Source: an uncultured Alphaproteobacteria bacterium
Lineage (GTDB): Bacteria; Pseudomonadota; Alphaproteobacteria; RF32; CAG-239
NCBI GenBank assembly: GCA_944393175.1
Contig: CALXZH010000024.1
Span: 29,813 to 93,812, forward strand
Direction: 5' to 3'
DNA: 64,000 bases
The notes below the pieces were generated by a model. That model did no database searches, was not told the DNA's origin, and saw only the letters and a list, made by a program, of their open reading frames with translations. Every line of letters starts with the position of its first letter. Within the stretch, counting starts at the first letter, position 1. This document shows positions 7,329-49,545 of the stretch, in pieces. A program made the position numbers and the translations under genes.

Positions 7329-8289
7329 AGGCCTTTTTGTTTTTGGTAGAAATCAGTGAAGCGGCAATGCCAATGAAGATAATTGAAAATGTTATTGACA
7401 GTGAATGCCAAGCTTCAAGCTTTATTCCTACGTATGGGAGAAAGATTTTGCTTCCGATAAAAATTAAAATGATTGATAAAGCTTGTTTTAAGTAAACAAA
7501 ACGGTAAACTGCAGCTTCCAATAAGAAATATAATGCTCTTAAGCCCAGAATGGCAAAGATGTTACTGGTGTAGATGACAAATATATCTTGCGTAATCAGG
7601 AAAATTGCAGGGATACTATCTAGTGCGAAAATAACATCCATGGTTTCCACAATTAACAAAGCAAAGAATAATGGAGTGATGTAATGATGTCCATTTCTTT
7701 TCATAAAAAAGTGTTCGCCGTGTATTTCGTGGGTTACGTGAAAAAATTTAGAAATTGTTTTGTATAAGCGGGTTTCTTTTAGAGGTGTTTCTTCTTTGGA
7801 GGAAGGTAGTACCATCTTGATACCCGTATAGAGCAAGAATGCAGAAAACAAGTATAATACCCAGTGGAATTCTTTTATTAATGCATCTCCTACAAAAATG
7901 AGAATAGCTCGCATTACCAGTGCGCCTAAAATACCCCAGAACAGAACGCGGTGCTGATACATTCTTGGAATTTGTAACGAGGTGAAGACTAAAGAGATGA
8001 TGAAGACGTTATCTAAAGATAAGCTCTTTTCTACCAAAAATCCGGTAAAGAATAACATACCTTTATCAAATCCTTCTTCGTACATAACAAAGACGCCGAA
8101 AATGCAGGCGGCTAAAATATATACAATGCACAAAACCAATGTATGCATAAAATTTGGGACTTCGTTCTTGCGGTTAAAAAACAGTAAGTCCCAGAGTAAT
8201 AAAACAATTACGGCTATGCCGAATATTGTCCACATCCACGTTGAAGATAATGTGGCGTGATGTGTAAATAAATATTGTAATCTTTCCAT
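7327..8289 (-). CDS. TerC-family integral membrane protein
   Basis: 320 aa, multiple TM helices, TerC-like conserved segments (ALDSIPAIF, DNVFII). Confidence 0.75.
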   Translation of the reverse strand: MERLQYLFTHHATLSSTWMWTIFGIAVIVLLLWDLLFFNRKNEVPNFMHTLVLCIVYILAACIFGVFVMYEEGFDKGMLFFTGFLVEKSLSLDNVFIISLVFTSLQIPRMYQHRVLFWGILGALVMRAILIFVGDALIKEFHWVLYLFSAFLLYTGIKMVLPSSKEETPLKETRLYKTISKFFHVTHEIHGEHFFMKRNGHHYITPLFFALLIVETMDVIFALDSIPAIFLITQDIFVIYTSNIFAILGLRALYFLLEAAVYRFVYLKQALSIILIFIGSKIFLPYVGIKLEAWHSLSITFSIIFIGIAASLISTKNKKA

Positions 8290-13146: not shown

Positions 13147-14039
13147 TGCAAAAATTTAATACCTTTTTGGCTTTTGACATCGGTGGAACAAAAATTGCTT
13201 ATGCATTGGTTGACGCTAAGGGAAATTTATTGGCAGAACAGGTTAGAATTCCAACGCCGAAAGATAATCAGGTTTTATTTGATACCTTAAAAAATGTTGT
13301 TCAAAAATTTGAAAGCCAAATTGATGGTATTGCAATTGCAACCGCAGGCGAAGTTAATAAAGATAATACTCATATTATTGCTTCGGTCGGAAATATGCCC
13401 AAAGGCTATATGAATACTGATTTTACGGCCCTATCGGATAAGCCGGTTTATGTGGAAAATGATGCTAATGCCGCAATGTGGGGCGAATATCTTTTGGGCG
13501 CGGCTAAAGGAACGGAAAATGCCATGTTGGTGGCTATCGGAACCGGTGTCGGGTTAGCGTTTATTGTTAACGGAAAAATATTAAAGGGAAAATCCGGTGC
13601 CGGTGGTGAAGCTCATTTTTCGGTTAATCGTGAGAAAAAGCGTCATTGCAGTTGCGGTTTGTGGGATTGTTATGAAATTTATGCTTCCGGTACGGCTTTG
13701 GGATTGGATGCTCAAGAAGTTTACGGACGAGATGATGTTTCCAGCCACGACGTGATTAAAGGGCTGAAAGAAAAGAATCCTTTGGCTGAAAAAGCTTATC
13801 ACATTTGGGAAAGTGATGTGGTTAGAGGAATTGCCGGTTTGGCAAATATATTTGATCCTGAAATTGTGGTGCTGTTTGGGTCATTGACGGCATTCATGGA
13901 TTTTGATAAATTGCAGGATGAAGTTAATCAGCAGATTGTTACCATGCCCTTGAAATTAAAGCATGCGCAATTGGATAATAATGCCGCACTGGTCGGAACT
14001 ACTTTGGCTGCCGCAGAAAAATTTAATAAGGATGCTTAA
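13147..14039 (+). CDS. ROK-family sugar kinase (glucokinase/N-acetylhexosamine kinase-like)
   Basis: ATP-binding DIGGTKIAYALVD motif; ROK zinc motif CSCGLWDCYE; ATG at 13147 with GGAG RBS. Confidence 0.8.
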
Positions 14040-14042
14040 ACG

Positions 14043-14306
14043 ATGCGACAGATTGATTCTTTTGTGCTATGGCTCGCTGCTTGTGTCTTGGTCTTGGGTG
14101 GGTTTGTGTTTTCGGTTTATTTGTTGTCGTTTATTCTGCCGGTCGTTGTCGTGTTCTTGTTAGGTGATTTTTTATGGAATATCGGAAGACGATGGTATTA
14201 TCAAAAAAAATTCGGTGGCGAAAAAATAGTGATTGTTAAAAGTAAGCCTCAAAAAAATAAAGATAATATTATTGATGCCGAATATGAAATTTTAGATGAA
14301 AAGTAA
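14043..14306 (+). CDS. small hypothetical membrane protein (2 TM)
   Basis: 87-aa ORF, two hydrophobic helices, abuts ROK gene stop; no recognisable family. Confidence 0.35.
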   Translation: MRQIDSFVLWLAACVLVLGGFVFSVYLLSFILPVVVVFLLGDFLWNIGRRWYYQKKFGGEKIVIVKSKPQKNKDNIIDAEYEILDEK

Positions 14307-14311
14307 GTAAT

Positions 14312-14347
14312 AAAAAAACAACCCGCTCAGCGGGTTGTTTTTTTATT
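14312..14347. terminator. bidirectional rho-independent terminator
   Basis: AACAACCCGC-TCA-GCGGGTTGTT hairpin flanked by A-run and T-run between convergent genes. Confidence 0.65.
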
Positions 14348-14359
14348 ATTGTAATTTTA

Positions 14360-15934
14360 TTAGATAGCTTTTTGTTTTTTGCGGGCGATGATGTCGCTGG
14401 CGCTAATTTTTAAAGAGCCATCTTGTTTTTGACTGTCAAAAGAAACAACGTTGCTTTGATTTTCACGCGCGTTCAGAACTTTTTGAACGATTTGGTCTTT
14501 TTGTTCTGAAATCTTTTGCCATGTTAAATTATTGCGAACATAAGTATTGCCGTTTTCTGCAATCTTTTGGCGTAACGGTTCATTGTTTAACAATAATTTC
14601 AAAGCTTTAACTTGACGCCAACGGTCGCTCTCTTGTGAGGGCGCATATAAGCCGATGGCTTTGCTGTAATCTTGATTGTCATCGCGGATGTCAGCGCAAT
14701 GTGCAAAATCATTAAAGCCGCTGCGTCCAACAATCACTGCCGTTTTACAACCCATAGCTTCAATCGGAACCATACCAAAGGCTTCGTTTAAGCTCGACAT
14801 TACAAAAATTGACGAAACATTGTAAACTCTTGCCATCTCTTTTTGATTTAATGATGGCAGAAAGATTACTCGATCTTCAAAATCTTTAAGAATTTCGTGG
14901 CATTCTTGGGTTACAGGATTACCAATTTCTCCGCTGACCATATAAATCACCGATGGGTCTTCCTTCATTACTTCGGCCATAGAACGAGAGAGTTCACTGA
15001 AGCCTTTGTCTCTTACAACACGACCAAGTGAAGATACAACTTTCTTGTCGGTTAAATCAATAACCTTATCTTCATTGTAGATGTTCTTATATTCAAAGTG
15101 ATATTTTAACTTATGCAGGTTTTGCGGGGTTAAAGGTTGGAAAATTTCATCATTATAACCGGGAGGAATAATGGTGATTTTATTGATGTCTGCAAGGTAT
15201 GGCTCAGCTAATAAGCGGGTTTGCTCATCAGGTGAGGTGGCTATGATAATGTCTGCCTTATGGAAGGCAAAAGTTTCATGTTCAATGCGTTTTTCAAAAT
15301 TATGCCATTGCCATTCTTCTTCGCTGATTTTTCCGGCTTCGTATTGCGGTAGGTTGCGTTCATATTTTTTGTGGCCCAAAGAGTGGCTCGTAACCAACAT
15401 CACCGGACGACGACCCGTTTCAGCTTCAATCTTGCTGCAGAGCATGTCAGCGGCTAACATACCGTCACGGTAGTGTCCTTCTACAACCTCAATGTTATCC
15501 AGTGCATTTTCTTTTTTGTAGAAATCATATAAGTTGTTGATGAGTTCGGGAAGTAACGGTACAATTTCTTCTTTGGGTACAAAATTGAAGTTTCCTCCTG
15601 CAGGAACGCGTAAAACGCGGCTGCGGATAGCTGAACTCTCGTGCCATTGCTGTTCAATCGTGTAGTTGATGTCAGCACCCAAATCGCGCGGTGTCCCTCC
15701 AAATTGCGGGCAAATGCGCGGATCAACACGGCGAGTTACCAAATCAACATCGTAGTTGTTTGAGTTGGCGGCAAGTGCCTTAACATAGTAAACCTGACCG
15801 CCGGTATCTTGTCCGGTGATAACTTTTTTGGAAATGACTTTGGTGGTCGGATAACCTTTTTCATCTAATTCAAAACCAAAGTCACCTTCAACCAAGCCAT
15901 GTGTAGAAAACATGACTTTTAATTTTTTTGACAT
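14360..15934 (-). CDS. sucrose-phosphate-synthase-like GT4 glycosyltransferase
   Basis: ~525 aa; N-terminal QDTGGQVYYV motif characteristic of sucrose synthase/SPS glycosyltransferase domain; start MSKKLKV chosen because GGAGA RBS precedes it (ORF-track ATG lies in the RBS). Confidence 0.55.
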   Translation of the reverse strand: MSKKLKVMFSTHGLVEGDFGFELDEKGYPTTKVISKKVITGQDTGGQVYYVKALAANSNNYDVDLVTRRVDPRICPQFGGTPRDLGADINYTIEQQWHESSAIRSRVLRVPAGGNFNFVPKEEIVPLLPELINNLYDFYKKENALDNIEVVEGHYRDGMLAADMLCSKIEAETGRRPVMLVTSHSLGHKKYERNLPQYEAGKISEEEWQWHNFEKRIEHETFAFHKADIIIATSPDEQTRLLAEPYLADINKITIIPPGYNDEIFQPLTPQNLHKLKYHFEYKNIYNEDKVIDLTDKKVVSSLGRVVRDKGFSELSRSMAEVMKEDPSVIYMVSGEIGNPVTQECHEILKDFEDRVIFLPSLNQKEMARVYNVSSIFVMSSLNEAFGMVPIEAMGCKTAVIVGRSGFNDFAHCADIRDDNQDYSKAIGLYAPSQESDRWRQVKALKLLLNNEPLRQKIAENGNTYVRNNLTWQKISEQKDQIVQKVLNARENQSNVVSFDSQKQDGSLKISASDIIARKKQKAI

Positions 15935-16185: not shown

Positions 16186-16262
16186 GGCGGGGTAGCTCAG
16201 TTGGTTAGAGCGGTGGAATCATAATCCATGTGTCGGGAGTTCGAATCTCCCCCTCGCTACCA
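16186..16262 (+). tRNA. tRNA-Met (anticodon CAT; elongator Met or tRNA-Ile2/lysidine type, not initiator)
   Basis: 77-nt cloverleaf: GGCGGGG acceptor, TAGCTCAGTTGGTTAGAGC D-arm, anticodon loop ATCATAA, GGGAGTTCGAATCTCCC T-arm, encoded CCA; anticodon stem lacks the three G-C pairs of initiator tRNA. Confidence 0.9.
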
Positions 16263-16375
16263 AGATTTAGTAACAGTCCTTAGGGGCTGTTTTTTTGTAT
16301 CTGTTTACTTTTTAATGTTAGCAGAGCTCGGCAGTTTGTAAGCCTACAAACTGTGGGAGATTAGCACTTAGGCCG
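16246..16375 (+). repeat. 130-bp direct repeat copy 1 (includes last 17 nt of tRNA-Met plus trailer/terminator)
   Basis: Near-identical to 16474-16605 (one extra T, one C/T difference). Confidence 0.9.
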
Positions 16376-16473
16376 CTAATTAAAATTTCGAAAGTTATCG
16401 CTTTCTCATTTTAATAAGCGTTTCTAAGATTTTGCAGACAAAAACAATCAATCCGCTGATTGTTTTTGCTTAG

Positions 16474-16605
16474 CAATCCCCCTCGCTACCAAGATTTAGT
16501 AACAGTCTTTAGGGGCTGTTTTTTTTGTATCTGTTTACTTTTTAATGTTAGCAGAGCTCGGCAGTTTGTAAGCCTACAAACTGTGGGAGATTAGCACTTA
16601 GGCCG
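16474..16605 (+). repeat. 130-bp direct repeat copy 2 (begins with tRNA-Met 3'-end mimic AATCCCCCTCGCTACCA)
   Basis: Read directly; ends exactly at the stop codon of the downstream minus-strand ArsR-like gene. Confidence 0.9.
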
Positions 16606-16609
16606 TTCA

Positions 16610-17263
16610 TTAAAAGTCTGATTTGTCAGACAGAGAATCATAGCGTTTGTGGATGCATTGTACGGCGGTTTTGTGGACACCGGGGGTGATGTCATAAATA
16701 ATGAATCGACCCTCGCGGTGGCTGGTGACAAAGCCGTCATCCCGCAAGCGTTTGAGGTTTTGCGAGACTTTGAGCTGCTCACTTTCAATGCCGGTGATAA
16801 TGTCTGACACGCACGAAGAACCAAACAATGTGAGGTATTCCAATATCCGCATCTTATCAACATTGGCAAAAAGTTTGATTTGGTTGGCGGCCATCATTGT
16901 ATAATCTCTGGGAAGAAGGGCTTTGTAATCTTCTTGGAGGTAGTTAAAACTATCCGTCATATAACCATAGAGTTTGCGTAGGCAGGTAAATAAGCTGGCC
17001 GGATATTCCTCACAGATTTGATAAAAGATGAAAAGACCGCGGCGTTGGGTTTTAACCAAGTTGGCATCCCGCAATTTTTTGAGGCTTTGTGAGACAATCA
17101 TTTGCTCTTCTCTTACACCTTTGGCAATGGCCGAAACGCAAGACGCCCCATAAACATCGAGATATTCCAAAATTTGCAGCCTTAAGGGATGAGCTATGTA
17201 GCTCAATCCCTTAACGGCTTTTTTCATGGTTTCAAGAGGAAGTTGTTGTTCCATTAGTCTCAC
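16610..17263 (-). CDS. transcriptional regulator with two tandem ArsR/SmtB-family winged-HTH domains
   Basis: 217 aa; two internally repeated ~95-aa units each with ArsR-like HTH (CVSAIAKGV..SQSLKKLRDANLV / CVSDIITGI..SQNLKRLRDDGFV). Confidence 0.7.
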   Translation of the reverse strand: MRLMEQQLPLETMKKAVKGLSYIAHPLRLQILEYLDVYGASCVSAIAKGVREEQMIVSQSLKKLRDANLVKTQRRGLFIFYQICEEYPASLFTCLRKLYGYMTDSFNYLQEDYKALLPRDYTMMAANQIKLFANVDKMRILEYLTLFGSSCVSDIITGIESEQLKVSQNLKRLRDDGFVTSHREGRFIIYDITPGVHKTAVQCIHKRYDSLSDKSDF

Positions 17264-39770: not shown

Positions 39771-39846
<76 letters not shown>

Positions 39847-39974
39847 TCTAAAAGCCTTGGTTTTCCAAGGCTTTTTTTGTATTCAGTTCATGGCGTTTTT
39901 CTTGATGCATTCAACCAGTAAGCAAATAGTAAGCACTTCTATAGTAAATTCTTATAAGTTTGTGTAAGATTTGT

Positions 39975-40301
39975 TTAAATACAAAAGCAGACAATCCTTT
40001 CTTCTGTGTTTATATATAGGCTGTTACTTTCTACTCTTTTTATGAAATCTTCATCTGTTTCCTCCTCTGATTTATATTCGTCAAAATTACCCCAATCGCC
40101 ATTGATGATTGCATTATCTACGACAATATCTGGACGATTATTCTCGGAAATTCCACATTCACGGATTAAATCGCAAAAATAGTCCCATAAACAATCGGGA
40201 ATATGCCAATTGTAATGAGATTCTACAAAATTGCGTCGATTATCTAATAAATCAATATAATCATCGACGTCTAACTCAATTTTTATGGTATTATTTGTCA
40301 T
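39975..40301 (-). CDS. small acidic hypothetical protein (island cargo)
   Basis: ~108 aa from MTNNTIK (AAAGGA RBS); very acidic (DVDDYIDLLD, EEETDEDF); no family recognised. Confidence 0.4.
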   Translation of the reverse strand: MTNNTIKIELDVDDYIDLLDNRRNFVESHYNWHIPDCLWDYFCDLIRECGISENNRPDIVVDNAIINGDWGNFDEYKSEEETDEDFIKRVESNSLYINTEERIVCFCI

Positions 40302-40772
40302 TATCTTTTCCTTTAAGAATAACAGTTGAATAGACAATGTTTTTTTCAAAACATCACTAATCACTTGAAAAATTGGAAAAGCAAACGAATTTTCGTGTTC
40401 TAGGATAACATTAAAATGCGGTAACTTGTTGATTTTTCATGTATAAGTTTTGTTTAAGTGTTATTTTTGTCTTGTATGTATATATAAGTTAAAAAGTTAC
40501 AGAGTAATTTTGAGATTGAAGAGAAATATATTTATTGGCTTTCTATAAGTAAGGTAAAGAAAAATAACGTATTAAAAAAGTATTACATCCCCCATAGTTC
40601 CCAAAATAGGGGGAGTATGTATATGGCTAAAATCTATATATGACCTTAATAGCATGTGATTATCATTTTAGAGTATTTACATCTATAACTCAACTTGATG
40701 TTTTATTAATTTATATTTTACTATTGTGAGATATCTTTTATAGCCTAGATGTTTTTATGGAAAGGAAGAAAC

Positions 40773-41066
40773 ATGAAGAAAGTTTTAGTTGTTTGGGCTG
40801 GTATGTTGGGATTATCAGCTTGTGTAACTCATGTTGATGTTGCTTACCAGCAACAAGGAAGTAATTGCTTGTATTCAGAAAAAGTTTCAGGTGAAGGTCT
40901 TTTTGGCAGAGATAGAGTATTGGAAAAAACGATATCTTATGAAGCAACACAATGTTCTCAAGTTATTGCCAGTGATTTAAAAAATAACAATAATAAGGAT
41001 CAATCAATTGTGACCACTACAGGCTTTTTTGATGATAGTCCGGTAGTTGCTAGAGCTGTTAAGTAG
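40773..41066 (+). CDS. small lipoprotein (island cargo)
   Basis: 97 aa; signal peptide with lipobox LGLSAC; AAGGAAG RBS before ATG 40773. Confidence 0.45.
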   Translation: MKKVLVVWAGMLGLSACVTHVDVAYQQQGSNCLYSEKVSGEGLFGRDRVLEKTISYEATQCSQVIASDLKNNNNKDQSIVTTTGFFDDSPVVARAVK

Positions 41067-41346
41067 TTACAGTTATGCTATGACACATCATAGAGAAGGT
41101 GCTTTGTTAGCGCCTTCTTTTTTTATGTCAATATGTTATGGTGTATATTTCTTGTCCATCTCTTTAATATATAGAGAGATGGACAGAGAAAGAAAAATAA
41201 TCCTTGATTTTGAGAAGTATTATCGCTAACATTTTGTTAGCTAATATTTTATTAGTTAGTGCCTGAAGAGGTGCGGAGCTTTCATCGGCTCCTACTACAT
41301 TCGGTGTTAGGGATAACATCGTTAATTGTTATTATAACAATAATAT

Positions 41347-41380
41347 CCCCGACTATGGCTCAATGGTCGGGGAGCTTTTA
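41347..41380 (+). terminator. hairpin + U-tract (terminator-like) within structured leader
   Basis: CCCCGAC-12 nt-GTCGGGG followed by AGCTTTT. Confidence 0.4.
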
Positions 41381-41473
41381 GCATATGTTCAGAAATCATA
41401 TTTCTGTCTTTGAAAGAATGTGGTTTTAAAAGCTATAAGAATCATTTAATGTAGTATGATTGATGAACTCTCC

Positions 41474-41507
41474 GACCACCTTCTAAACAGGTGGTTTTTC
41501 TTTTAGA
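41474..41507 (+). terminator. hairpin + U-tract immediately upstream of DUF805 gene RBS (possible attenuator)
   Basis: ACCACCT-TCTAAAC-AGGTGGT followed by TTTTTCTTTT; RBS GGAGAGG begins 5 nt later. Confidence 0.45.
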
Positions 41508-41524
41508 TTTTGGAGAGGTATTTC

Positions 41525-42277
41525 ATGAATTCTTTGGTTCAGCTAGTGAAACATTCATTGAATGATGTTAATTCTACAAAAAATATTGATGTAATAAATG
41601 TAACAACTCGTTCAACACTATTACACGCAAAACATGTAAATAAATTTGAAAATCAATCAGATCAAACAAGTGAAATACAACAAATAGATAGCAATGTAGA
41701 GCATCCAATGCAATATCACATATCGCAAGGTACTATGATTTTGTATTTGCTATTTTTGGGTATAATAGGTGCTATTATATTTTATTTTATATTTCGAAAA
41801 GATAAGCATGATATGAAAGAAGTTAAAATGTTGAAAAATAAAAAATTTTCTATTTACAATCCTGCATTTGGCAATTTATTATTTTGTTCTGGTAGAATAA
41901 ATCGTTTACATTATTTTATCTATACACTTATTTTATCTGTGTTTTTTATGTTTCTGGTTTGGGGAATGATTTCCCTCAAAATAGATCCTGAATCCATTTT
42001 ATACACCGTAATTATTTTACGGTGGGTGGTTGGTCTCCCTCTTGTGTCCAAAAGATGCCATGATATTAATGTCAGTGTAAGTTATTATATTATGTATTCT
42101 ATATTTTGCTGCTTACTCTCTTTGTTTTCAGCAGATGAGTTTAGTCAGATTGTAACGTTTTTAATTAGAGGAGTTGATACTATAATTGCATTAATATTGT
42201 TGTTTAAGAAAGGAACTAATGGCAATAATAGATTTGGTATTTCCCCTTTGAAGACTAAGGAGAAAAAAAATGACTAG
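41525..42277 (+). CDS. DUF805-family inner-membrane protein with ~70-aa N-terminal cytoplasmic extension
   Basis: C-terminal 3-TM region with DUF805 hallmarks (GRINRLHY, KRCHDINVS, NRFG near C-terminus); ATG 41525 preceded by GGAGAGG; stop overlaps next gene start (ATGA). Confidence 0.65.
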   Translation: MNSLVQLVKHSLNDVNSTKNIDVINVTTRSTLLHAKHVNKFENQSDQTSEIQQIDSNVEHPMQYHISQGTMILYLLFLGIIGAIIFYFIFRKDKHDMKEVKMLKNKKFSIYNPAFGNLLFCSGRINRLHYFIYTLILSVFFMFLVWGMISLKIDPESILYTVIILRWVVGLPLVSKRCHDINVSVSYYIMYSIFCCLLSLFSADEFSQIVTFLIRGVDTIIALILLFKKGTNGNNRFGISPLKTKEKKND

Positions 42278-43829
42278 AAAATTTAAATATAGCCTTTGTG
42301 GCTTTGTTATATTTATAATTCTTGCCGTTTCTGCTTGTATATGCACGAATAATCAAGATGAGCTTATTCAGGATGATAAAGTTGCTTTTTCTCCTTCTAA
42401 AGAGTGTGAAAATACAATTATTAGCCTTATAAAACATTCTGAGAAAATTGATATAGTCGTGTTTGATATTAATAATGATAATATTGTTGAGGCTTTGCAG
42501 AAAGCTGAAAAACAAGGTAAAAAAATCAGAATACTTACGGATAAAAGACAAGCAGCGACTAAAGCCTCTAAAGTTATAGATTTGTATAAAGCTGGGATTA
42601 ATATTCGTGTAAATTCAAAGAACAAAATTGAACATAACAAATTTGCGGTATTTGATAATAAGTATGTGATTACAGGTTCTTATAATTGGACTAATCCGGC
42701 AAGTGAGAGAAATAGTGAAAATTGCCTTCTTTCTGTGGAAAATGAAGATATTATAGAAGATTATAATAATCGTTTTGAGTATTTGTGGCAGATAAATACA
42801 AAGAAAAAATCTGAGGCGTGGTTCCACAAAAAATTAAATCAAAAACAATATAATAATCGTAAATATATTACCAAACAGCAGCAAAAAAAGATAGAAAAGG
42901 TCTTAGATGATAGTATTCAGACCTTTTCGGCTAAGGGTGGCGCGGTTATTGTTTTAGATGCAGATAGTTCTCAAGTGCTATCGATGACTTCTATCCATAA
43001 AGGGGAGGGTGTTGTTGATTATATTGCGGATTATACATACCAACTTGGTTCGATTTATATGCCGTTTACAGTTGCTTTGGGTATAAAACAAAATGTTGTT
43101 TCAAATACGACGGAATTTGATGTTTCTAAGCCTTTGAATGTTCAAGGGTATAACATTTCAGACGTTAATCCTCTAAAAGTTGATAAAATTACTCTGCAAG
43201 ATGTGTTGTCTAAAAGTTCTAACATTGCGACTGCACAAATTGCTACGGATATAACGCCTAAACAACATAATAAATTTTTAAAATCTTTAGGTTTGGGAGA
43301 ACCGATTGTTTTAGAAAATTTGCATACAGCTAAGCCGATTTTACCGGATTTAGATGATGAAATTACTATAGCCAATTTGGGATATGGTTTTGGTATTTAT
43401 GCAACGCCATTACATGTGGCAGCAGCTTATGCAGCTTTGGTCAATGGCGGTCAATATCATGCCCTATATCTCAAAAAATCTGAAAAAACGGATGGTAAAC
43501 AAGTTATTCCTTCCCAAATATCGAAAGAAATGCGTGAATATTTACGTCAAGTCGTTACAAATGGTTCGGCAAGAAAAGCTAATCTTTCGTATGTAGATGT
43601 TATGGCAAAGACAGGAACTGTGTCTAAAATGATTGATGGAAAGTATCATGACAATATTGTTATAACTCATGTTGTGGGAAATTTTGAATATAATGGTATG
43701 CACTATGTTGTATATGTTTTACTTGATGAACCGCAACCGACAAAACAAACTTATGGGTTTGTAACGTCAGGTTGGAATGCGGTTCCGACGATGGCTCAAA
43801 TTATTAATATCATAGCAAAAAAATCTTAA
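42270..43829 (+). CDS. lipoprotein fusing an N-terminal single-HKD phospholipase-D/Nuc-like nuclease domain to a C-terminal class-B PBP transpeptidase-like domain with degenerate SxxK (SIYM)
   Basis: Lipobox AVSAC; HKD motif H122-x-K-x4-D129 followed by GSYNWT (Nuc/PLD family); C-terminal domain shows PBP motifs SSN (316-318) and KTG (447-449) at canonical spacing, but the SxxK position reads S261-I-Y-M264. Confidence 0.65.
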   Translation: MTRKFKYSLCGFVIFIILAVSACICTNNQDELIQDDKVAFSPSKECENTIISLIKHSEKIDIVVFDINNDNIVEALQKAEKQGKKIRILTDKRQAATKASKVIDLYKAGINIRVNSKNKIEHNKFAVFDNKYVITGSYNWTNPASERNSENCLLSVENEDIIEDYNNRFEYLWQINTKKKSEAWFHKKLNQKQYNNRKYITKQQQKKIEKVLDDSIQTFSAKGGAVIVLDADSSQVLSMTSIHKGEGVVDYIADYTYQLGSIYMPFTVALGIKQNVVSNTTEFDVSKPLNVQGYNISDVNPLKVDKITLQDVLSKSSNIATAQIATDITPKQHNKFLKSLGLGEPIVLENLHTAKPILPDLDDEITIANLGYGFGIYATPLHVAAAYAALVNGGQYHALYLKKSEKTDGKQVIPSQISKEMREYLRQVVTNGSARKANLSYVDVMAKTGTVSKMIDGKYHDNIVITHVVGNFEYNGMHYVVYVLLDEPQPTKQTYGFVTSGWNAVPTMAQIINIIAKKS

Positions 43830-43911
43830 AACATACATCGAGTAACACAAAATAATTATATGCCTGTCCAATATATTATATATATAAATATTGGACAGGC
43901 TATATTATATG

Positions 43912-44970
43912 TTATTTTTCAGCTTTCAGAATGTTGCCGATAGTTGATTTGGAAATTCCTGTTGTATTAGCAATTTCTCTATAGCTTGCACCTTGTTCAT
44001 GCAATGTTTTTACGATAGAATAAGTATCAACCCAAGCAATACCTCCGTCCGTAGTATCTACTAAATCAATATTAAAATTTGAAATGTCTTTGCTCGAAAG
44101 GTTACGGTTCTTTTCAAATTTTAAACGACATCTACCGCCGTAAATCGCATATTCGTCTGATATATCTGAATAGTTTTCTTCAGCTTCTTCTGTTTTGGTG
44201 AGCTTTTTCTTGTTTGGTGTCGTGACTTCAAGATTAATCACTGTATCTAGTATATCTTCTCTTTTAGATATTCCTCTTTGGCCACCTCTCTTTCCAGAAT
44301 GATGAACTAATAATACAGCAATTCCTTGTTTCCTTAGCTCCATTAGCCACTCTTGAATTATAAGCCAAGCATTCCCGTCTAATTCATCTATCTTAGTTAA
44401 AGATGATATATTATCTAAGATAACAAATTTTATATTTTCGTTGAAAATAATATCATTAATATTTTTTTGCATTAAACCATACGCAATATCAATTGAGGTA
44501 AATGGTTGTAAATCCGCTGAAAAAATATGCAAGTTGTCCATTGCATTCACTTCTGTATCAAAATTTTTAGCTATTTTTGAAAAGCGTTCTTGAAGTAAGT
44601 TTGCTTGCATTTCCCCATCAATATATAACACATTTGAAGGTTTATAGGCTTTCCAACGTAAGAATTTACTTCCAGTTGCAATTGCGTAAGCTAAAGACAT
44701 AGCAAAAAAGCTTTTTCCTACTCCTCTATAAGCATGTAACATTGTTAGACTTTTAGCGTGAATAATCGGATCAAGTAGCATTTCTGGCTTAGGCAAATTC
44801 AATTGCATAAAATTCTTTAAGTTAAATATTTTACAAGGATTTTTATTCTCTTGATTATTTGTAATATTTATATTATTGTCGTTTGCAGGATTGGTTGATA
44901 AATCAATCGTTTGTTCTACTCCGTCTTGTTCCAGCAAGGCGGAATTTTTTATATCCATATTATCTTCCAT
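43912..44970 (-). CDS. RepA/DnaB-like RecA-fold ATPase (AAA_25-like) with C-terminal HTH; island replication/mobilisation protein
   Basis: Walker A AYRGVGKS, Walker B FVILDN, HHSGK motif; C-terminal HTH (SYREIANTTGISKSTIGNIL). Confidence 0.65.
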   Translation of the reverse strand: MEDNMDIKNSALLEQDGVEQTIDLSTNPANDNNINITNNQENKNPCKIFNLKNFMQLNLPKPEMLLDPIIHAKSLTMLHAYRGVGKSFFAMSLAYAIATGSKFLRWKAYKPSNVLYIDGEMQANLLQERFSKIAKNFDTEVNAMDNLHIFSADLQPFTSIDIAYGLMQKNINDIIFNENIKFVILDNISSLTKIDELDGNAWLIIQEWLMELRKQGIAVLLVHHSGKRGGQRGISKREDILDTVINLEVTTPNKKKLTKTEEAEENYSDISDEYAIYGGRCRLKFEKNRNLSSKDISNFNIDLVDTTDGGIAWVDTYSIVKTLHEQGASYREIANTTGISKSTIGNILKAEK

Positions 44971-45217
44971 AGTTTATCTCCTTTTTTGAATATTCAGAAG
45001 TTGATGTTACTTTAGAGGTTTGCGAATCTAACCAATCTAAAACGTCTTGCTTTTTGTATAGTCGCTTGTTTCCCAATTTTATATAAGGGATACCACCGCC
45101 TGATACAGCTTTGCAGTTAAACCATGAGATTGATTTGTTGAGATATGCAGCAACAATTTTTGTTGGCAACAATGCATCTGCCGGAGCAGATAGAAAATTA
45201 TTTAAATTATTATTCAA
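44960..45217 (-). CDS. AlpA-family phage/island regulatory protein (excisionase-like HTH)
   Basis: 85 aa; AlpA-like pattern (PTKIVAAYLNKSISWFNC...GIPYIKLGNKRLYKKQDVLDWL); overlaps repA-like start by 11 nt. Confidence 0.65.
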   Translation of the reverse strand: MNNNLNNFLSAPADALLPTKIVAAYLNKSISWFNCKAVSGGGIPYIKLGNKRLYKKQDVLDWLDSQTSKVTSTSEYSKKEINYGR

Positions 45218-45345
45218 ATCTTTTTCCTTTCTTTAAAAGGTTACAGTTTCAATCAACTGCATTCAAAGAATTAGGAAAAATCTTTAGAGAAGTATAGTCC
45301 TCAACTTAGATGATGTTGTACCCTACTGGGTAAATGTACAAACTT

Positions 45346-46029
45346 TTATTGAATATTCTTTTTCTTCTTGGGATATAACATTCTTCGAATCGATAAAGAA
45401 TAGTCTGAATTGCACCAATTATATGCTATTTCTTTTGCATATTCCTGAAGTTTTTTTATATTTTCTTCTTTATTGGCAAAATGATTTATGGTTAATTTTT
45501 TATTCAAGTTTTTTTGCTGTTCAAATAAATCCTTGGTATATTTCTTTAGTCTCTCATGCTTGTCGTTTTTGGCTTTTACTCCTGCGTTGCTTATTTCGAG
45601 CTGTCTTTCTTGTAATATTTGTTTAGCCAGTTCTGCATCGGTATATTTGAGATGTTTGATACAAATATCAAATCCATTAGAAAATACTAAGAAGGCAAGG
45701 TATAATCCGTCTTTGTTATTTTGAAGTCCTGTATATATATTGTGTAGCTTTTGTTGTAGAACTGTCAGTTCTTTATTGGGATAAACTTTATTACCTTTCC
45801 AAAAATCAACTACTGTCTTTATGGTTAAATTTTTTTCTTCTTTTTCTAGCAAAAATACAGAAATATTGATTAAATTTATGAATAATGAGCTTGTTGCATA
45901 ATTATCAGCCCCAAACCCCGTTAAATTATAAAAATATTCGCTGGGATCTAATATAAAATAATCCTGATTAAGATTATAAGCATCGGTTATCAATAATTCA
46001 TAAATTTCTCTGATTTCTTGTCTTTTCAT
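45346..46029 (-). CDS. hypothetical protein (island, between int and alpA)
   Basis: 227-aa ORF, no recognisable motif; sits where satellite regulators are often found. Confidence 0.4.
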   Translation of the reverse strand: MKRQEIREIYELLITDAYNLNQDYFILDPSEYFYNLTGFGADNYATSSLFINLINISVFLLEKEEKNLTIKTVVDFWKGNKVYPNKELTVLQQKLHNIYTGLQNNKDGLYLAFLVFSNGFDICIKHLKYTDAELAKQILQERQLEISNAGVKAKNDKHERLKKYTKDLFEQQKNLNKKLTINHFANKEENIKKLQEYAKEIAYNWCNSDYSLSIRRMLYPKKKKNIQ

Positions 46030-46047
46030 AAAATAACCTTCTCTGTG

Positions 46048-47274
46048 TTATACTATTTTATTAAATATGTTTACCACATTATTGGTTTCATTTTCTTTAA
46101 CTCCGGCTTGTTTTAGTATGTAATCTTCTATAAGTTGCATTGGCTTACGCAAGGTTTCAGTTTCAAATTGGATATATCCTGCGGTAACATCATCTTCGGA
46201 ATGGTTTAAGAGCTTTTTTAGTGTAAAATTTGTTATTCCGGCAATATGATTATTGGCAATACTGGCAAAAGTTCGGCGAATATCATGTAAAGAGAATTTA
46301 ATACCGCTGTTTTCTGCAATGTGTTGTACAGTTTTTCTTTGATTTTCAACATGCCCACTTTTATTTTGAGCTGGAAAAACGTATATCGAATCGTTATTTT
46401 CTTTTAATTTTAACAAAAACTCTCTTAAATATTCTCCCATCGGTAGAATGTGTTCTTTGTGGTTTTTGGTATGTTCAAAGGTAATGGTGTTTAATTTGAA
46501 GTCAATATTGCACCATTTTAGAGTTCCGGCTTCTTGGTCTCGACATCCAGTAAATAGAATGAATAAACATTGATTTTTAACTGTTTTTACGTTTTCAGTG
46601 TCTTGTTCATGGTGTTGAAGTCCAAAAAAGAAGGTTTTAATTTGAGATGGGTGAATGTAACTTTGTCTTCTGGGTACTTTATTCCATAATTTGAAGGCTT
46701 TTAATCGATTGCAAGGATTGGAAGGAATGATTGGTTCTCCATTTACTATATATTTTTCCATTGCAAAATTAAATACGGCTCTTAAAAATCTAAAATCAGA
46801 GTTAGCAATAGATTTTGATGATTTAGATGTATCCAGAAATCTATTTTCTATCATTTCACGAGAGATATTCGTTAGAGCTTTATTTGCCCAATCTTTAAAA
46901 CAAAGGCGCATACTCCGTTCATATTTTATTTTTGTGCTTTCAGTAATGGTTTTAATCTTAATGTATTCTTCATAGGCTTGTTGTAGGGTAATACTTTTTG
47001 TCTTTTCTTCCTTTTCTCTGGTTGTAATGTCTATGCCTTGAGCTAGATCACCTAGATATTTTTTTGCTATTCTACGAGCTTCTTCGGGAGTAAAAACATT
47101 AATCTGACCTATTTTTTTACGAATTGTTTTTCCTCTATCGTTTCTCGCTTGTATAATATAGCTGATTTTTTTCTTGGTTACTTTTATGCCGAATCCTTTT
47201 AGGTCATCATCCCAGTAAAATTCTTCTTTGTCTGTGAATTTTAACTTATCAATATTTGATTTATTAATTTTCAT
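46048..47274 (-). CDS. int: tyrosine site-specific integrase, P4-type (N-terminal DUF4102-like arm-binding domain)
   Basis: 408 aa; catalytic R (GCRDQEAGTLKW), HDIRRT, and C-terminal VTAGYI Tyr; N-terminal MKINKSNIDKLKFTDKEEFYWDD...GFGIKV typical of P4-family integrases that target tRNA genes. Confidence 0.9.
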   Translation of the reverse strand: MKINKSNIDKLKFTDKEEFYWDDDLKGFGIKVTKKKISYIIQARNDRGKTIRKKIGQINVFTPEEARRIAKKYLGDLAQGIDITTREKEEKTKSITLQQAYEEYIKIKTITESTKIKYERSMRLCFKDWANKALTNISREMIENRFLDTSKSSKSIANSDFRFLRAVFNFAMEKYIVNGEPIIPSNPCNRLKAFKLWNKVPRRQSYIHPSQIKTFFFGLQHHEQDTENVKTVKNQCLFILFTGCRDQEAGTLKWCNIDFKLNTITFEHTKNHKEHILPMGEYLREFLLKLKENNDSIYVFPAQNKSGHVENQRKTVQHIAENSGIKFSLHDIRRTFASIANNHIAGITNFTLKKLLNHSEDDVTAGYIQFETETLRKPMQLIEDYILKQAGVKENETNNVVNIFNKIV

Positions 47275-47446
47275 TTTAAATTTCCTTTCTAAAATCAGTA
47301 AGCAAATAGTAAGCAGATTTGATAGAAATGCTTATGAGATGAGAAATGTTTCTGTAAGAATGAAAATTAAATAAATCAAGTAAAAACAATTGGTTATATA
47401 AGAAACTGTAAACAGAACAAATATGTTGTAATATCGCTTTACCAAA

Positions 47447-47526
47447 ACTGAAAATCCTCGTGTCGGCGGTTCAATCCCGTCCCCGAGCACCATCTAAAAG
47501 CCTTGGTTTTCCAAGGCTTTTGTTGT
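47447..47526 (+). repeat. attR-like direct repeat: copy of tRNA-Phe nt 31-76 plus downstream terminator
   Basis: ACTGAAAATCCTCGTGTCGGCGGTTCAATCCCGTCCCCGAGCACCATCTAAAAGCCTTGGTTTTCCAAGGCTTTT identical to 39801-39875. Confidence 0.9.
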
Positions 47527-47930
47527 ATGGTGCTCTCGCCAATCGAGCGGCGCAGGGCTTGCTCTCTTGGGGACGGGCCTCGCTTTGAAACTTAATTTCA
47601 CTTCCGAAACTGTTCGTTTCGTCGTTCAATAAATTTTCAAAGATGTTGCATACAAAAACAATCAATCGTGATTGTTTTTGCTTAGCCATCCCAACTCGCA
47701 CCATCTAAAAGCCTTGGTTTTCCAAGGCTTTTGTTGTATGGTGCTCTCGCCAATCGAGCGGCGCAGGGCTTGCTCTCTTGGGGACGGGCCTCGCTTTGAA
47801 ACTTAATTTCACTTCCGAAATTGTTCGTTTCGTCGTTCAATAAATTTTCAAAGATGTTGCAGACAAAAACAATCAATCGTGATTGTTTTTGCTTAGCCAT
47901 CCCAACTCGCACCATCTAAAAGCCTCCGAT
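47493..47930 (+). repeat. 211-bp tandem repeat, 2 complete copies + 16-bp start of a third; each unit ends in a tRNA-3'-end mimic (CCCAACTCGCACCA)
   Basis: Units 47493-47703 and 47704-47914 near-identical (period 211); third begins TCTAAAAGCCT then diverges. Confidence 0.9.
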
Positions 47931-48063
47931 TAAGAAAGTTTTGTGTGGCTAAAAGAATTTATTATCTTGTGTCTTACGCCTTATCCTTATATTGTATGAG
48001 TCTAAATTGAAAAAACACTTAGTTTTTTTTTGTCTTTCAGTGATTGATATTATGGATAGGTAG

Positions 48064-48789
48064 ATGAAAATATTTCGTTCGGTGATTTCTTCACGCGGTA
48101 CGTGGCGTTTATATTTCTTGGGAATTAAAATTTTTTCGGTTAAACGAAAGTTGCCTAGTATTTGTGTGGATGCAAAAAATGATGTCTCTGTTCCAAAATT
48201 GAAATATTTGAAAGTTTCTGTTCACGGAAAAAATAATAAGATTTATGTTACTTCGGATATGGATGAAAATACGCGAATATCCTTAATGGTTTTTGGTAAT
48301 AATAATGTTATTCGCATCAATACAAAGCGCTTTATTAATGCTGATATTATTATTGGTTTAAATGATGTTAAAATAGAAAATGCTTTTCTGCTTATTGATG
48401 ATGAAACCTCTATAAACGGTGTAAAAATTTTAATGTCTGAAAACGGTAGCAGGGTTGTTATCGGAAAGGACTGTATGTTTTCTTCAGGGGTAGAAATGTG
48501 GTGTTCGGATACTCACTGTGTATTGGATTTGCAAGGAAATTTATTAAATGTCGGACAATTTATTGAAATAGGGAATCATGTTTGGGTGGGAAAAGATGTT
48601 CACTTTACCAAAAATACTAAAATTGCAGATAATAGTATTGTCGGGTGGTGTTCTAATATTACGGCTCAATTTGATGAGAAAAACGTTATTGTGGCTGGAA
48701 ATCCGGCTAGAATTGTTAAGCGCAATATTCAGTGGAACAGTATGCGTCCGAATGAATATTTAACGTACCAAGTTCTACAGAATAAATAA
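48064..48789 (+). CDS. left-handed beta-helix (hexapeptide-repeat) acetyltransferase
   Basis: 241 aa; hexapeptide repeats in C-terminal half (IGNHVWVGKDVHFTKNTKIADNSIVGWCSNI...VIVAGNPARIV). Confidence 0.55.
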   Translation: MKIFRSVISSRGTWRLYFLGIKIFSVKRKLPSICVDAKNDVSVPKLKYLKVSVHGKNNKIYVTSDMDENTRISLMVFGNNNVIRINTKRFINADIIIGLNDVKIENAFLLIDDETSINGVKILMSENGSRVVIGKDCMFSSGVEMWCSDTHCVLDLQGNLLNVGQFIEIGNHVWVGKDVHFTKNTKIADNSIVGWCSNITAQFDEKNVIVAGNPARIVKRNIQWNSMRPNEYLTYQVLQNK

Positions 48790-48914: not shown

Positions 48915-49196
48915 ATGAAAAACTTTAACTCTACTTCTAATTCTTCTTTAAACTTAAGTGAAAGCGCTATTCGTGAAGCTGCTTACTATATTTGGAAAAA
49001 TAACGGTTGCCCGGCTAACACCAGCTTGAGCGACTGGAATGCTGCTATTAACCAACTTTCTTCTATGGCTGCTTTGAACTCTGCTGCTAAGAAAATTTCT
49101 ACAAAGACTTCTTCTTGCAAAGCTTCTACCTTGGTTAAGAAAACTCCGGTTAAAAAAGCTGCTAAAACTACTGCCAAAAAGAAATCTTCTAAATAG
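48915..49196 (+). CDS. DUF2934-family small protein
   Basis: IREAAYYIWKNNGCPANTSLSDWNAA matches DUF2934 signature; Ala/Lys-rich tail. Confidence 0.5.
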   Translation: MKNFNSTSNSSLNLSESAIREAAYYIWKNNGCPANTSLSDWNAAINQLSSMAALNSAAKKISTKTSSCKASTLVKKTPVKKAAKTTAKKKSSK

Positions 49197-49302
49197 TTGG
49201 TATGTTGGTAAACTAAAGGCTCCGCAAAAGGAGCCTTTTTTCATAATTATTTAATCTTTTTGATTTAATATGCTTTTATTATTAAGTGTTGGGAGATGTC
49301 AT

Positions 49303-49545
49303 ATGTTTGATGAAAAAACTATTCGTGAGACGGCTTATTATATTTGGAAAAATAACGGTTGTCCGGCTAATACTTCTACTCAGGATTGGAATGCCGCAAT
49401 TGAGCAATTAGAGCAGAAAGATGCTTTGGCTACCGCTAAACAAATATCTTCTTTGTATCAAGCGGCTTTCTTGAATTCTTTGACCAAAAGCAAAAGCCGT
49501 AAAAAAGATAGCTTACAGTTAATGCGCCAAATCATTTTGAAATAA
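49303..49545 (+). CDS. DUF2934-family small protein (paralog)
   Basis: IRETAYYIWKNNGCPANTSTQDWNAA; ATG 49303 preceded by GGGAGA RBS. Confidence 0.5.
   Translation: MFDEKTIRETAYYIWKNNGCPANTSTQDWNAAIEQLEQKDALATAKQISSLYQAAFLNSLTKSKSRKKDSLQLMRQIILK

Follow-up and report, generated by a model that had tools for sequence, protein, structure and literature searches.

Tandem units behind the tRNA-Phe and tRNA-Met genes of an uncultured gut alphaproteobacterium share the layout of Escherichia coli tRNA-linked repeats

The stretch of 64,000 nucleotides analyzed here (hereafter the window) comes from an uncultured gut alphaproteobacterium and contains two transfer RNA (tRNA) genes, tRNA-Phe and tRNA-Met, each of which has its own array of repeat units. 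The array that belongs to tRNA-Phe is composed of 211-bp units that open with the trailer of the tRNA gene and close with a degenerate copy of its 3' end. By their architecture, we consider these units to be probable members of the tRNA-linked repeats (TLRs), a class reported only from Escherichia coli and its relatives (PMC8144298).

Results

The intact tRNA-Phe gene (anticodon GAA) occupies 39771-39846 on the plus strand, as called by ARAGORN and by the Rfam tRNA model (69 bits). Between this gene and its array lies an integrated island of 7.6 kb (39883-47446) that is absent from L001 and L002, contigs of the same species. The island is bounded by an 82-bp attachment (att) direct repeat, the two copies of which are 99% identical and lie on the plus strand at 39801-39882 (attL; direct repeat family D2) and 47447-47528 (attR). 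Each consists of 46 nt of tRNA-Phe, running from the anticodon loop to the CCA, and a 36-nt trailer with a terminator hairpin. The 3' half and trailer of the intact gene come from the island side, and a displaced 46-nt 3' part of tRNA-Phe is found at 47447-47492. Just as the sequence-only reading that preceded this work had placed it, the array follows at 47493, and the attR trailer (47493-47528) doubles as the first segment of the first repeat unit.

Tandem Repeats Finder (TRF) reported one array in the window, at 47487-47925, with a period of 211, 2.1 copies (2.08), 99% matches, 0 indels and a score of 864. It contains two full units on the plus strand, unit 1 at 47493-47703 and unit 2 at 47704-47914, the sub-parts of the second being those of the first offset by 211 bp; both were also recovered by blastn and by nhmmer with a profile of the alphaproteobacterial units (E 1e-54 for unit 1). 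The tandem arrangement and period given by the sequence-only reading are therefore borne out, but the repetition is not exact, as direct blastn comparison of the two units shows mismatches at 47610 (C/T) and 47651 (T/G). A third copy had been thought to run to 47930; it agrees with the unit start over 11 nt, to 47925 (TCTAAAAGCCT), and then diverges. This third, degenerate trailer (47915-47947, plus strand; TCTAAAAGCCTCCGATTAAGAAAGTTTTGTGTG; repeat family D3) resembles a decayed form of the terminator that comes after tRNA-Phe in L001.

The unit-to-unit junction is present in three independent metagenome assemblies (L001, L002 and L003), and therefore the array is no artefact of the window's own assembly, an outcome that would have undone the earlier reading. 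However, several contigs end within the repeat or have an N-gap there, and so copy number from short reads could be too low. The repeat is a recurrent break point of short-read assemblies: L003-L008, L158 and L160 break in or beside it, and L002 carries its N-gap at 5563-5663. Such breaks, together with open reading frames (ORFs) on the minus strand (77 aa) and the plus strand (22 aa), are what can be said for an assembly artefact, or for units that encode a small protein in the manner of E. coli tpr. Set against this are the shared junction, the two positions at which the copies differ, and the fact that the ORFs exist only through the repeat, with neither frames nor start codons conserved; indels separate the L001 units and the ATG is absent in L012 and L014. 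We find this explanation scarcely credible and reject the ORFs as by-products of the repeat, in keeping with the earlier judgment that the units are not protein-coding; between copies, the short ORFs are not conserved. Nor is the array a CRISPR array, in which short repeats of ~25-40 nt alternate with unique spacers; here, whole units are repeated at a period of 211 bp with no spacers.

Each tRNA-Phe unit is built of four parts in a fixed order: a terminator, a reverse complement of the T-stem/acceptor strand of the tRNA, a structured core, and a direct copy of the tRNA 3' end (...ACCA). The module is oriented as its tRNA is, and its ACCA end leads into a terminator again. In unit 1, the trailer hairpin AAAAGCCTTGG-TTTT-CCAAGGCTTTT (47496-47521; inverted repeats I5-I7) provides the terminator at the unit start (AAAAGCCTTGGTTTTCCAAGGCTTTT) that the sequence-only reading had recognized, and it recurs at 39850-39875 and 47707-47732. 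The hairpin looks like a two-way intrinsic terminator, although a simple terminator scan made no call at 47496-47521. The inverted, interrupted copy of the tRNA end that had been noticed inside the unit is likewise there, as two exact complements separated by 33 nt. The first, TGGTGCTC (47528-47535, plus strand), is complementary to the tRNA-Phe acceptor end GAGCACCA; the second, GGGGACGGG (47569-47577, plus strand), is complementary to CCCGTCCCC, which comprises the 3' strand of the T-stem and the start of the acceptor strand. The mimic is split by a G+C-rich hairpin, GCTCTCGCC/GGCG(c)AGGGC (47532-47558, plus strand; alignment A1). When the variants of this hairpin in relatives (L012, L014, L009) were paired by hand, three of five changes stayed paired as U-G or U-A, on the tRNA-sense strand only; the exceptions are one broken pair in L009 and a deletion in unit 2 of L001.

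Downstream of the inverted mimic is the conserved core, X (47586-47690, plus strand), which is common to the tRNA-Met unit. Its main feature is a long hairpin, GAUGUUG..ACAAAAACAAUCA-loop-UGAUUGUUUUU..GCUUAGCCAUC (47642-47690, plus strand), identified with RNAalifold and pair counts, of which the inner, AT-rich hairpin (47654-47679) is a motif also present in Clostridia-type units recovered by the metagenome scan described below. The core is not tRNA-like, as neither ARAGORN nor the Rfam tRNA model matched it. The unit ends in the degenerate mimic that had been proposed, CATCCCAACTCGCACCA (47687-47703, plus strand), a direct copy of tRNA-Phe from the T-loop to the CCA; in a hand alignment it agrees with the tRNA 3' end at 13 of 17 positions with a 3-nt gap, GCACCA alone being contiguous.

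A second array (16263-16621) lies behind the window's only other tRNA gene, tRNA-Met (CAU; 16186-16262, plus strand). With a period of ~230 bp and 1.5 copies it was missed by TRF, and was found by blastn of the unit against the window, where copies occur behind the two tRNA genes only. The full Met unit (16263-16491, plus strand) carries a terminator (16272-16291), a hairpin, the inverted mimic GGGAGATT (16355-16362, plus strand; complement of tRNA-Met AATCTCCC), core X with an AT hairpin (16440-16467, plus strand) and the direct mimic AATCCCCCTCGCTACCA (16475-16491, plus strand), 15 contiguous nt of which are identical to the end of tRNA-Met. A partial second unit (16492-16621, plus strand) has a terminator (16501-16520) and the 5' third of the body before it diverges, and terminators flank the Met units. 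Approximately 100 nt of the Met unit is homologous to the Phe unit, with 88% identity over 52 columns (117-168) that correspond to the long hairpin and 59% over the 54 preceding columns (63-116), and the rest is unrelated. Homology confined to the core, with ends that are unlike, indicates a common core with tRNA-specific ends.

We scanned one genome per species with a pattern of the core, and units were found only in metagenome-assembled genomes (MAGs) of uncultured gut Alphaproteobacteria, in one or two copies and always behind tRNA-Phe (L009, L012, L014 and, in partial form, L011) or tRNA-Met (L013, L016). In L001, L002, L009, L012 and L014, they stand directly behind the intact tRNA-Phe gene. 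The check that the sequence-only reading had asked for, blastn of the unit and a scan of relatives, thus gave a second set of copies behind tRNA-Met and a constant link to tRNA genes, and the possibility it had raised against itself, of a unit unique to one locus with no tRNA association elsewhere, fell away because the core also occurs behind tRNA-Met and other tRNAs. The metagenome scan found no further alphaproteobacterial units, but found a compact family instead.

L001 and L002 were found through the exact protein encoded just downstream of the array (48064-48789). They have no island and carry two units directly behind intact tRNA-Phe, and their flanking genes are 99-100% identical to those of the window. 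The array is therefore chromosomal and older than the island, and is not an island scar. The island is inserted at the anticodon loop of tRNA-Phe, between the tRNA and the array, which now lies 7.6 kb from the tRNA promoter. As the adjacent island gene, for a tyrosine integrase with an arm-binding domain (46048-47274, minus strand; Pfam), is oriented away from the array, the array has no upstream sense-strand promoter, and it is probably silent (untranscribed) in the window genome.

The main explanation offered by the sequence-only reading was that the units are serial attR-like scars of decayed islands once integrated in tRNA-Phe. It is true that the array abuts attR, that trailer types are shuffled between positions in different strains, that a remnant of the island left end follows a unit in L014 and L011, and that integrase islands occur at both tRNA loci (Phe and Met) in some genomes. 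However, units are present in genomes that have no island, and the att repeat runs for 82 bp from the anticodon loop, of which the units contain no more than the final 6 nt of the tRNA and the trailer. In addition, neither end of the island resembles the unit body, the same body lies behind tRNA-Met, and the 5S-linked TLRs of E. coli cannot be att scars. We regard the scar explanation as very improbable. The att repeats themselves resemble those of other tRNA islands with P4-type tyrosine integrases in being a partial tRNA 3' copy that adjoins a tRNA gene; they differ from the 211-bp units in that they start in the anticodon loop and bound a 7.6-kb integrase element, whereas the units occur island-free.

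In L014 (2520-2625, minus strand) and L011 (~7760-7865), a single Phe unit carries an island-type trailer, followed by ~70 nt of the island left end and then a DUF2934 gene. The remnant joins the pseudo-3' end of the unit and not the tRNA proper, an arrangement suggesting that the repeated 'ACCA + trailer' junctions have recombined with each other. In L013 (~1100-1447), the start of an integrase-like gene adjoins a T-loop-to-CCA fragment of tRNA-Met, and two Met units come next. If an island is integrated at tRNA-Met there, it likewise displaces the array.

The units turn over quickly among relatives. Those of L001 and L002 are more diverged than the two in the window, with three different terminators filling the three trailer positions, and trailer types have been shuffled among positions between strains. 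A copy resembles the others of its own genome more closely than it does its orthologues in other genomes. Taken with the lower conservation of the units than of neighboring genes, this turnover and within-genome likeness point to frequent recombination, homogenization, gain and loss. Additional relatives were anchored on topoisomerase I (TopA). In one of these, L159 (TopA identity 88%), two terminators enclose a unit whose core is different. At this locus (13900-14400), tRNA-Phe is inverted relative to the conserved gene order, and the unit core consists of TGGTATTC.., three hairpins and AAATCCCGTCCCC, between terminators that are identical and two-way. A search for empty sites returned L155 and L157, which are unit-free, and L159 with its other core, and in these the flanks are too diverged to set insertion boundaries.

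The window unit is predicted to fold better than shuffled sequences (z -3.7) into a structure closed by GGUGC/GCACC around four hairpins, the GGUGC being that of the first part of the inverted mimic and the GCACC that of the 3' end. In the alignment, 99.6% of the cells of the long hairpin are paired. It contains one compensatory pair, from G-C in Phe units to U-A in Met units, at a place where the Phe mimic departs from its tRNA, and two invariant U-G/G-U wobbles that would be A-C mismatches on the other strand. These wobble and compensatory pairs, and the C-to-U variants of the G+C-rich hairpin that stay paired on that strand only, modestly favor an RNA on the tRNA-sense strand. No sigma-70-like promoter was found inside the units on either strand. 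Rfam matched only the two tRNAs in the window, with no match to RtT, the model of the E. coli units, at its gathering threshold (45 bits); at E<=10 over 47300-48100 there was again no RtT, and only weak chance matches (FasX, terminator-driven).

We also scanned gut metagenomes with the AT-rich hairpin alone (AAAAACAATC, 3-14 nt, GATTGTTTTTGC). The scan returned 107 stretches, mostly ordinary terminators. Compact units, 80-130 nt long, account for at least 27 of them, and these follow either a tRNA (for Arg, Glu, Tyr, Ser or Leu) or an incomplete copy of one. Their 5' part consists of a terminator and the reverse complement of the tRNA T-loop, the 3' strand of the T-stem and one to four acceptor nucleotides; next come AAGGA.., a hairpin that varies, the AT hairpin and ..CGCGG.., and the unit closes with tRNA sequence in direct orientation, from the T-loop toward the 3' end. 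This direct copy attains the CCA in five of seven compact units and is decayed after 10-14 nt in two tRNA-Arg units; identity to the tRNA 3' end extends over 13-21 nt in six of the seven and 10 nt in L024. Tandem compact units occur in L021 and L026. One carrier contig was typed as uncultured Clostridia from the names of the homologues of a neighboring protein. Rfam gave no family match to the compact units, and no RtT at E<=1.

The ends of the units follow the resident tRNA. When 10 units from three lineages were compared with their 10 tRNAs, the cognate tRNA matched over the greatest length, alone or in a tie, in 17 of the 20 cases that the two mimics provide, and the three exceptions involve a closely similar tRNA or one that shares TTCGAA. 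The left mimic is inverted, as CTCGAA adjoins a tRNA-Leu whose T-loop is TTCGAG, and in L107 four further nucleotides are complementary to the acceptor strand. The predicted minimum-energy fold of L107 (-55 kcal/mol, z -6.4) comprises an outer stem of 13 bp, an inner stem and two hairpins, with UCCGCCA as its tail.

The recurrence of one core behind many tRNAs raises the alternative that the units are a non-autonomous mobile DNA element, one that targets the tRNA 3' end or T-loop, builds its flanks from the target, depends on a recombinase encoded elsewhere and forms tandems by repeated insertion. The same core behind the two window tRNAs and behind tRNAs for Arg, Glu, Tyr, Ser and Leu, with flanks that match the local tRNA, is what such an element would leave. 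Both junctions of the compact units fall in the palindromic T-loop TTCGAA, units are present in some close relatives and absent from others, and the difference between the filled L012 and the unit-free L155 (which is no matched empty site) looks like the body plus a duplicated 'ACCA + trailer'. The unit of L019 is a recombinant of two tRNA loci, its left half being that of the unit at a tRNA-Arg locus (L024) and its right half, mimic and trailer, that of the L027 unit. The AT-rich hairpin is also identical in sequence between Alphaproteobacteria and Clostridia-type units, but that identity is partly a product of how the search pattern was written. Neither an autonomous copy nor a linked recombinase gene was found. 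Hairpin matches in the viral collection IMG/VR were all unrelated terminators and included no family member, and blastn found no match in PLSDB (plasmids) or INPHARED (phages), so that there is no evidence for the unit within a phage or plasmid attachment site. We know of no transposition chemistry that yields target-derived inverted and direct repeats of this length, and the wobble-pair pattern points to constraint at the level of RNA. On balance we think the mobile-element explanation doubtful; it overlaps with the TLR reading in that it could be how TLRs originate.

Other known systems were considered and set aside. Miniature inverted-repeat transposable elements (MITEs) have constant terminal inverted repeats, a short target-site duplication and dispersed copies; here, the inverted repeats are tRNA-derived and different at each locus, there is no short target duplication, and copies in the window occur only behind the two tRNAs. 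A retrovirus-like primer-binding site was rejected as the inverted mimic of the compact units stops short of the CCA end. A bridge-RNA or guide-RNA is not supported, with no IS110, TnpB or IscB gene nearby and with mimics that overlap each other in place of matching adjacent target halves. The geometry of a CTX-phage-like hairpin attachment site, in which two inverted copies form a duplex mimic in single-stranded DNA, is attractive, but no element is attached, and we treat it as a form of the mobile-element alternative. A different kind of resemblance was met in the 16S-tRNA-Ile spacer of a Kordia genome (L010, 62-87) and of a MAG labelled Parasphingorhabdus (L017, 3446-3471), the spacers of which are nearly identical. 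Both contain the 26-nt CAATCGAGAGATTGTTTTTGCTTAGC, whose likeness to the 3' half of the core hairpin and GCTTAGC is probably due to chance, even though it lies in an rRNA/tRNA operon.

The closest parallel to the window units is in E. coli. The four units of tyrT-tyrV consist of a trailer, GGGGAAGGAT..TTCGA, a two-hairpin core and AATCCTTCCCCCACCACCA, where GGGGAAGGAT..TTCGA is an interrupted complement of the T-loop, T-stem and acceptor of tRNA-Tyr (TTCGAATCCTTCCCC). As a control, the Rfam RtT model detected all four at 133-137 bits, and its consensus structure pairs the two mimics to close the RNA and leaves the ..CCACCA tail free. Beside the inverted mimic, the RtT body holds a further direct copy of the variable arm and 5' part of the T-arm of tRNA-Tyr, CTTCGACCAAGGTTCGA. 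In the rrnB spacer, the order is 5S end, T1, body, AACTGCCAGGCAT mimic and T2, and the hairpin GAACGTTGC..GCAACGGCCCGRAGGGTG is common to the RtT units (L154) and this spacer (L163). The T1-T2 portion of rrnB is widely used as a terminator cassette in expression plasmids.

Such repeats were first described in 1978, as a 178-bp repeat behind E. coli tyrT (Egan & Landy 1978, as cited in PMC8144298), and the RNA is called rtT or RttR, and RtT in Rfam (RF00391; Egan & Landy 1978 and Rudd 1999, as cited in PMC8144298). TLRs number 22 in E. coli K-12, at ten loci with one to five copies each, behind tRNA and 5S rRNA genes (PMC8144298). By definition, a TLR directly follows a tRNA or rRNA gene, belongs to the same operon and has the same orientation, and its hallmark is a 3'-terminal 18-19 bp identical to the 3' end of the upstream gene (PMC8144298). 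No function is known for the E. coli TLRs, an early link to the stringent response having been withdrawn (PMC8144298). The three 5S-linked copies, rrA, rrB and rrF, lie between T1 and T2 of rrnA/B/D. They are reported to be transcribed when RNA polymerase reads through T1, to have their ends made at RNase E sites beside the 3'-end copy, and to bind Hfq and CsrA in vitro, via GGA motifs (Stenum et al. 2021, PMC8144298). A further trailer-derived small RNA, 3'ETS-leuZ, is cut by RNase E from a tRNA transcript and acts as a sponge for other small RNAs (cited in PMC8144298).

The units described here share most of this plan. Like the tyrT/tyrV units, they lie behind a tRNA in the same orientation and in tandem, directly behind intact tRNA-Phe in five island-free or related genomes and behind tRNA-Met in the window and L016. 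Relatives have 1 or 2 copies, and the window has 2.08 at tRNA-Phe and ~1.5 at tRNA-Met. As in E. coli, the last part of the unit copies the tRNA 3' end as far as the CCA, an upstream complement of the T-stem and acceptor is predicted to pair with that copy, and a common core is joined to locus-specific ends. The RtT topology is recovered in predicted folds, in the outer stem, hairpins and CCA tail of L107 and in the GGUGC/GCACC closure of the window unit. The order of gene 3' end, terminator 1, body, 3'-end copy and terminator 2 is also that of rrA/rrB/rrF, which differ in being single copies linked to 5S rRNA and not to tRNA. The units here each have their own hairpin resembling an intrinsic terminator, unlike the tyrT/tyrV units, and the hosts are different, an uncultured gut alphaproteobacterium as opposed to an enterobacterium. 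3'ETS-leuZ is similarly derived from a tRNA trailer, but is unrepeated and has no mimic of the tRNA end. The core differs by eye from GAACGTTGC..GCAACGGCCCGRAGGGTG, the RtT hairpin GAACGTTGC..GCAACGGCCCG being replaced by the AT-rich AAAAACAATC.., and the RtT model does not match it.

The remaining genes of the locus bear on the island and its surroundings. Besides the integrase, Pfam identified an AAA_25/helix-turn-helix (HTH) protein, a PLD-transpeptidase fusion and a DUF805 protein in the island. The fusion, a 519-aa protein (42270-43829, plus strand), combines a PLD-like nuclease/phospholipase domain (PF13091) with a penicillin-binding-protein transpeptidase domain (PF00905), which is an unusual pairing, and its gene has the genes for the DUF805 protein and the AAA_25 and HTH protein as neighbors. 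A direct repeat lies just within both island ends, at 39913-39958 and 47293-47338, with core CAGTAAGCAAATAGTAAGCA and 76% identity over 46 nt (D6); the CAGTAAGCAAATAGTAAGCA repeats may be arm-type binding sites of the integrase. Downstream of the array, two adjacent DUF2934 genes (48915-49196 and 49270-49545) have a 63-nt stretch in common that is 86% identical, which indicates a local duplication of the gene. A homologue search with a 665-aa protein encoded upstream gave one match and was uninformative.

Discussion

We favor the view that the 211-bp units are TLRs, and hold it with rather more confidence than doubt. At the level of sequence, the layout, the linkage to tRNA, the ends that follow the tRNA, the common core, the variation in copy number and the independence from the island are established. 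Because the plan is like that of E. coli TLRs but neither the sequence nor Rfam gives a match, the units appear to be a new sequence family within a known class, outside the one order in which that class has been described so far. The sequence-only reading came close with its other suggestion, a miniature tRNA-end element amplified in tandem, given that the core recurs behind tRNA-Met and other tRNAs, but it did not recognize the TLR class.

The likeliest reading, by analogy with E. coli, is of a read-through trailer RNA that would be excised by tRNA 3'-end processing. As with rtT and rrA/B/F, RNA polymerase would read through the first terminator and transcribe the unit on the tRNA-sense strand. 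The complementary stretch would then pair with the 3'-end copy and close a multi-hairpin RNA, and the tRNA-like 3' end would let tRNA 3'-trimming enzymes, with a cut of the RNase E type just past the mimic, free a small RNA. Relatives carry no unit, one or two, and this number may shift when the ~41-nt 'GCACCA + trailer' junctions undergo unequal homologous recombination; the copies of a single genome would be homogenized.

Several points weigh against this interpretation. Transcription, read-through and processing are carried over from E. coli by analogy alone. There is no detected similarity to the E. coli TLRs in sequence or by covariance model, so that the likeness is one of architecture and does not prove common descent, and the tRNA-Phe mimic has 6 contiguous nucleotides as opposed to the 18-19 identical bp in E. 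coli. The opposite strand of the window unit folds equally well (z -4.8), and covariation is thin, as most pairs do not vary and the alignment was also the source of the structure. Two close relatives, L155 and L157 (TopA 95% and 92% identity), have tRNA-Phe and its terminator without a unit. Finally, two strains that agree at 99-100% in their flanking genes agree at only 95-98% in the units, which at that scale show no sign of purifying selection.

The last two of these points would also be accounted for if the units were decayed partial tRNA duplicates, functionless pseudo-tRNA remnants kept by recombination between repeats. The degenerate Phe mimic, and the further tRNA-Tyr copy in the body of E. 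coli RtT, are in line with that explanation. However, the left mimic is no direct copy but a reverse complement, as seen beside tRNA-Leu and in the extra complementary nucleotides of L107. The core is common to unrelated tRNAs, is matched by no tRNA model, and has a hairpin that is kept across lineages. We consider such remnants improbable, and return to TLRs as the preferred interpretation.

More broadly, it is conceivable, though we propose it tentatively and think it may well not hold, that TLR-like modules exist across phyla, in Gammaproteobacteria, Alphaproteobacteria and Clostridia. In each lineage a specific core would spread among the ends of tRNA and rRNA operons, and the closing stem would be rebuilt from the T-loop-to-acceptor sequence of the resident tRNA. 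If true, the modules would be either mobile elements of a new kind, with flanks borrowed from the target, or a family of RNAs, each showing the acceptor/T-arm half of one particular tRNA. Such RNAs, with a free CCA end, would be a decoy or a substrate for tRNA-binding enzymes, and the array in the window would be one instance.

As far as the searchable literature shows, the combination of a constant core with tRNA-specific inverted and direct mimics, in several phyla and with rapid turnover by island sites, is new. The arrays occupy sites of island integration and interrupt short-read assemblies, and they could be misread as att scars, pseudo-tRNAs or small ORFs. Both tRNA genes in 64 kb of an uncultured gut alphaproteobacterium have the TLR plan, and the core hairpin marks units at no fewer than five other tRNA types in Clostridia-like contigs from gut metagenomes. 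A comparative study is thereby opened, of which parts follow the tRNA and which stay constant, and of the rate at which units are gained and lost, and an old question can now be tested.

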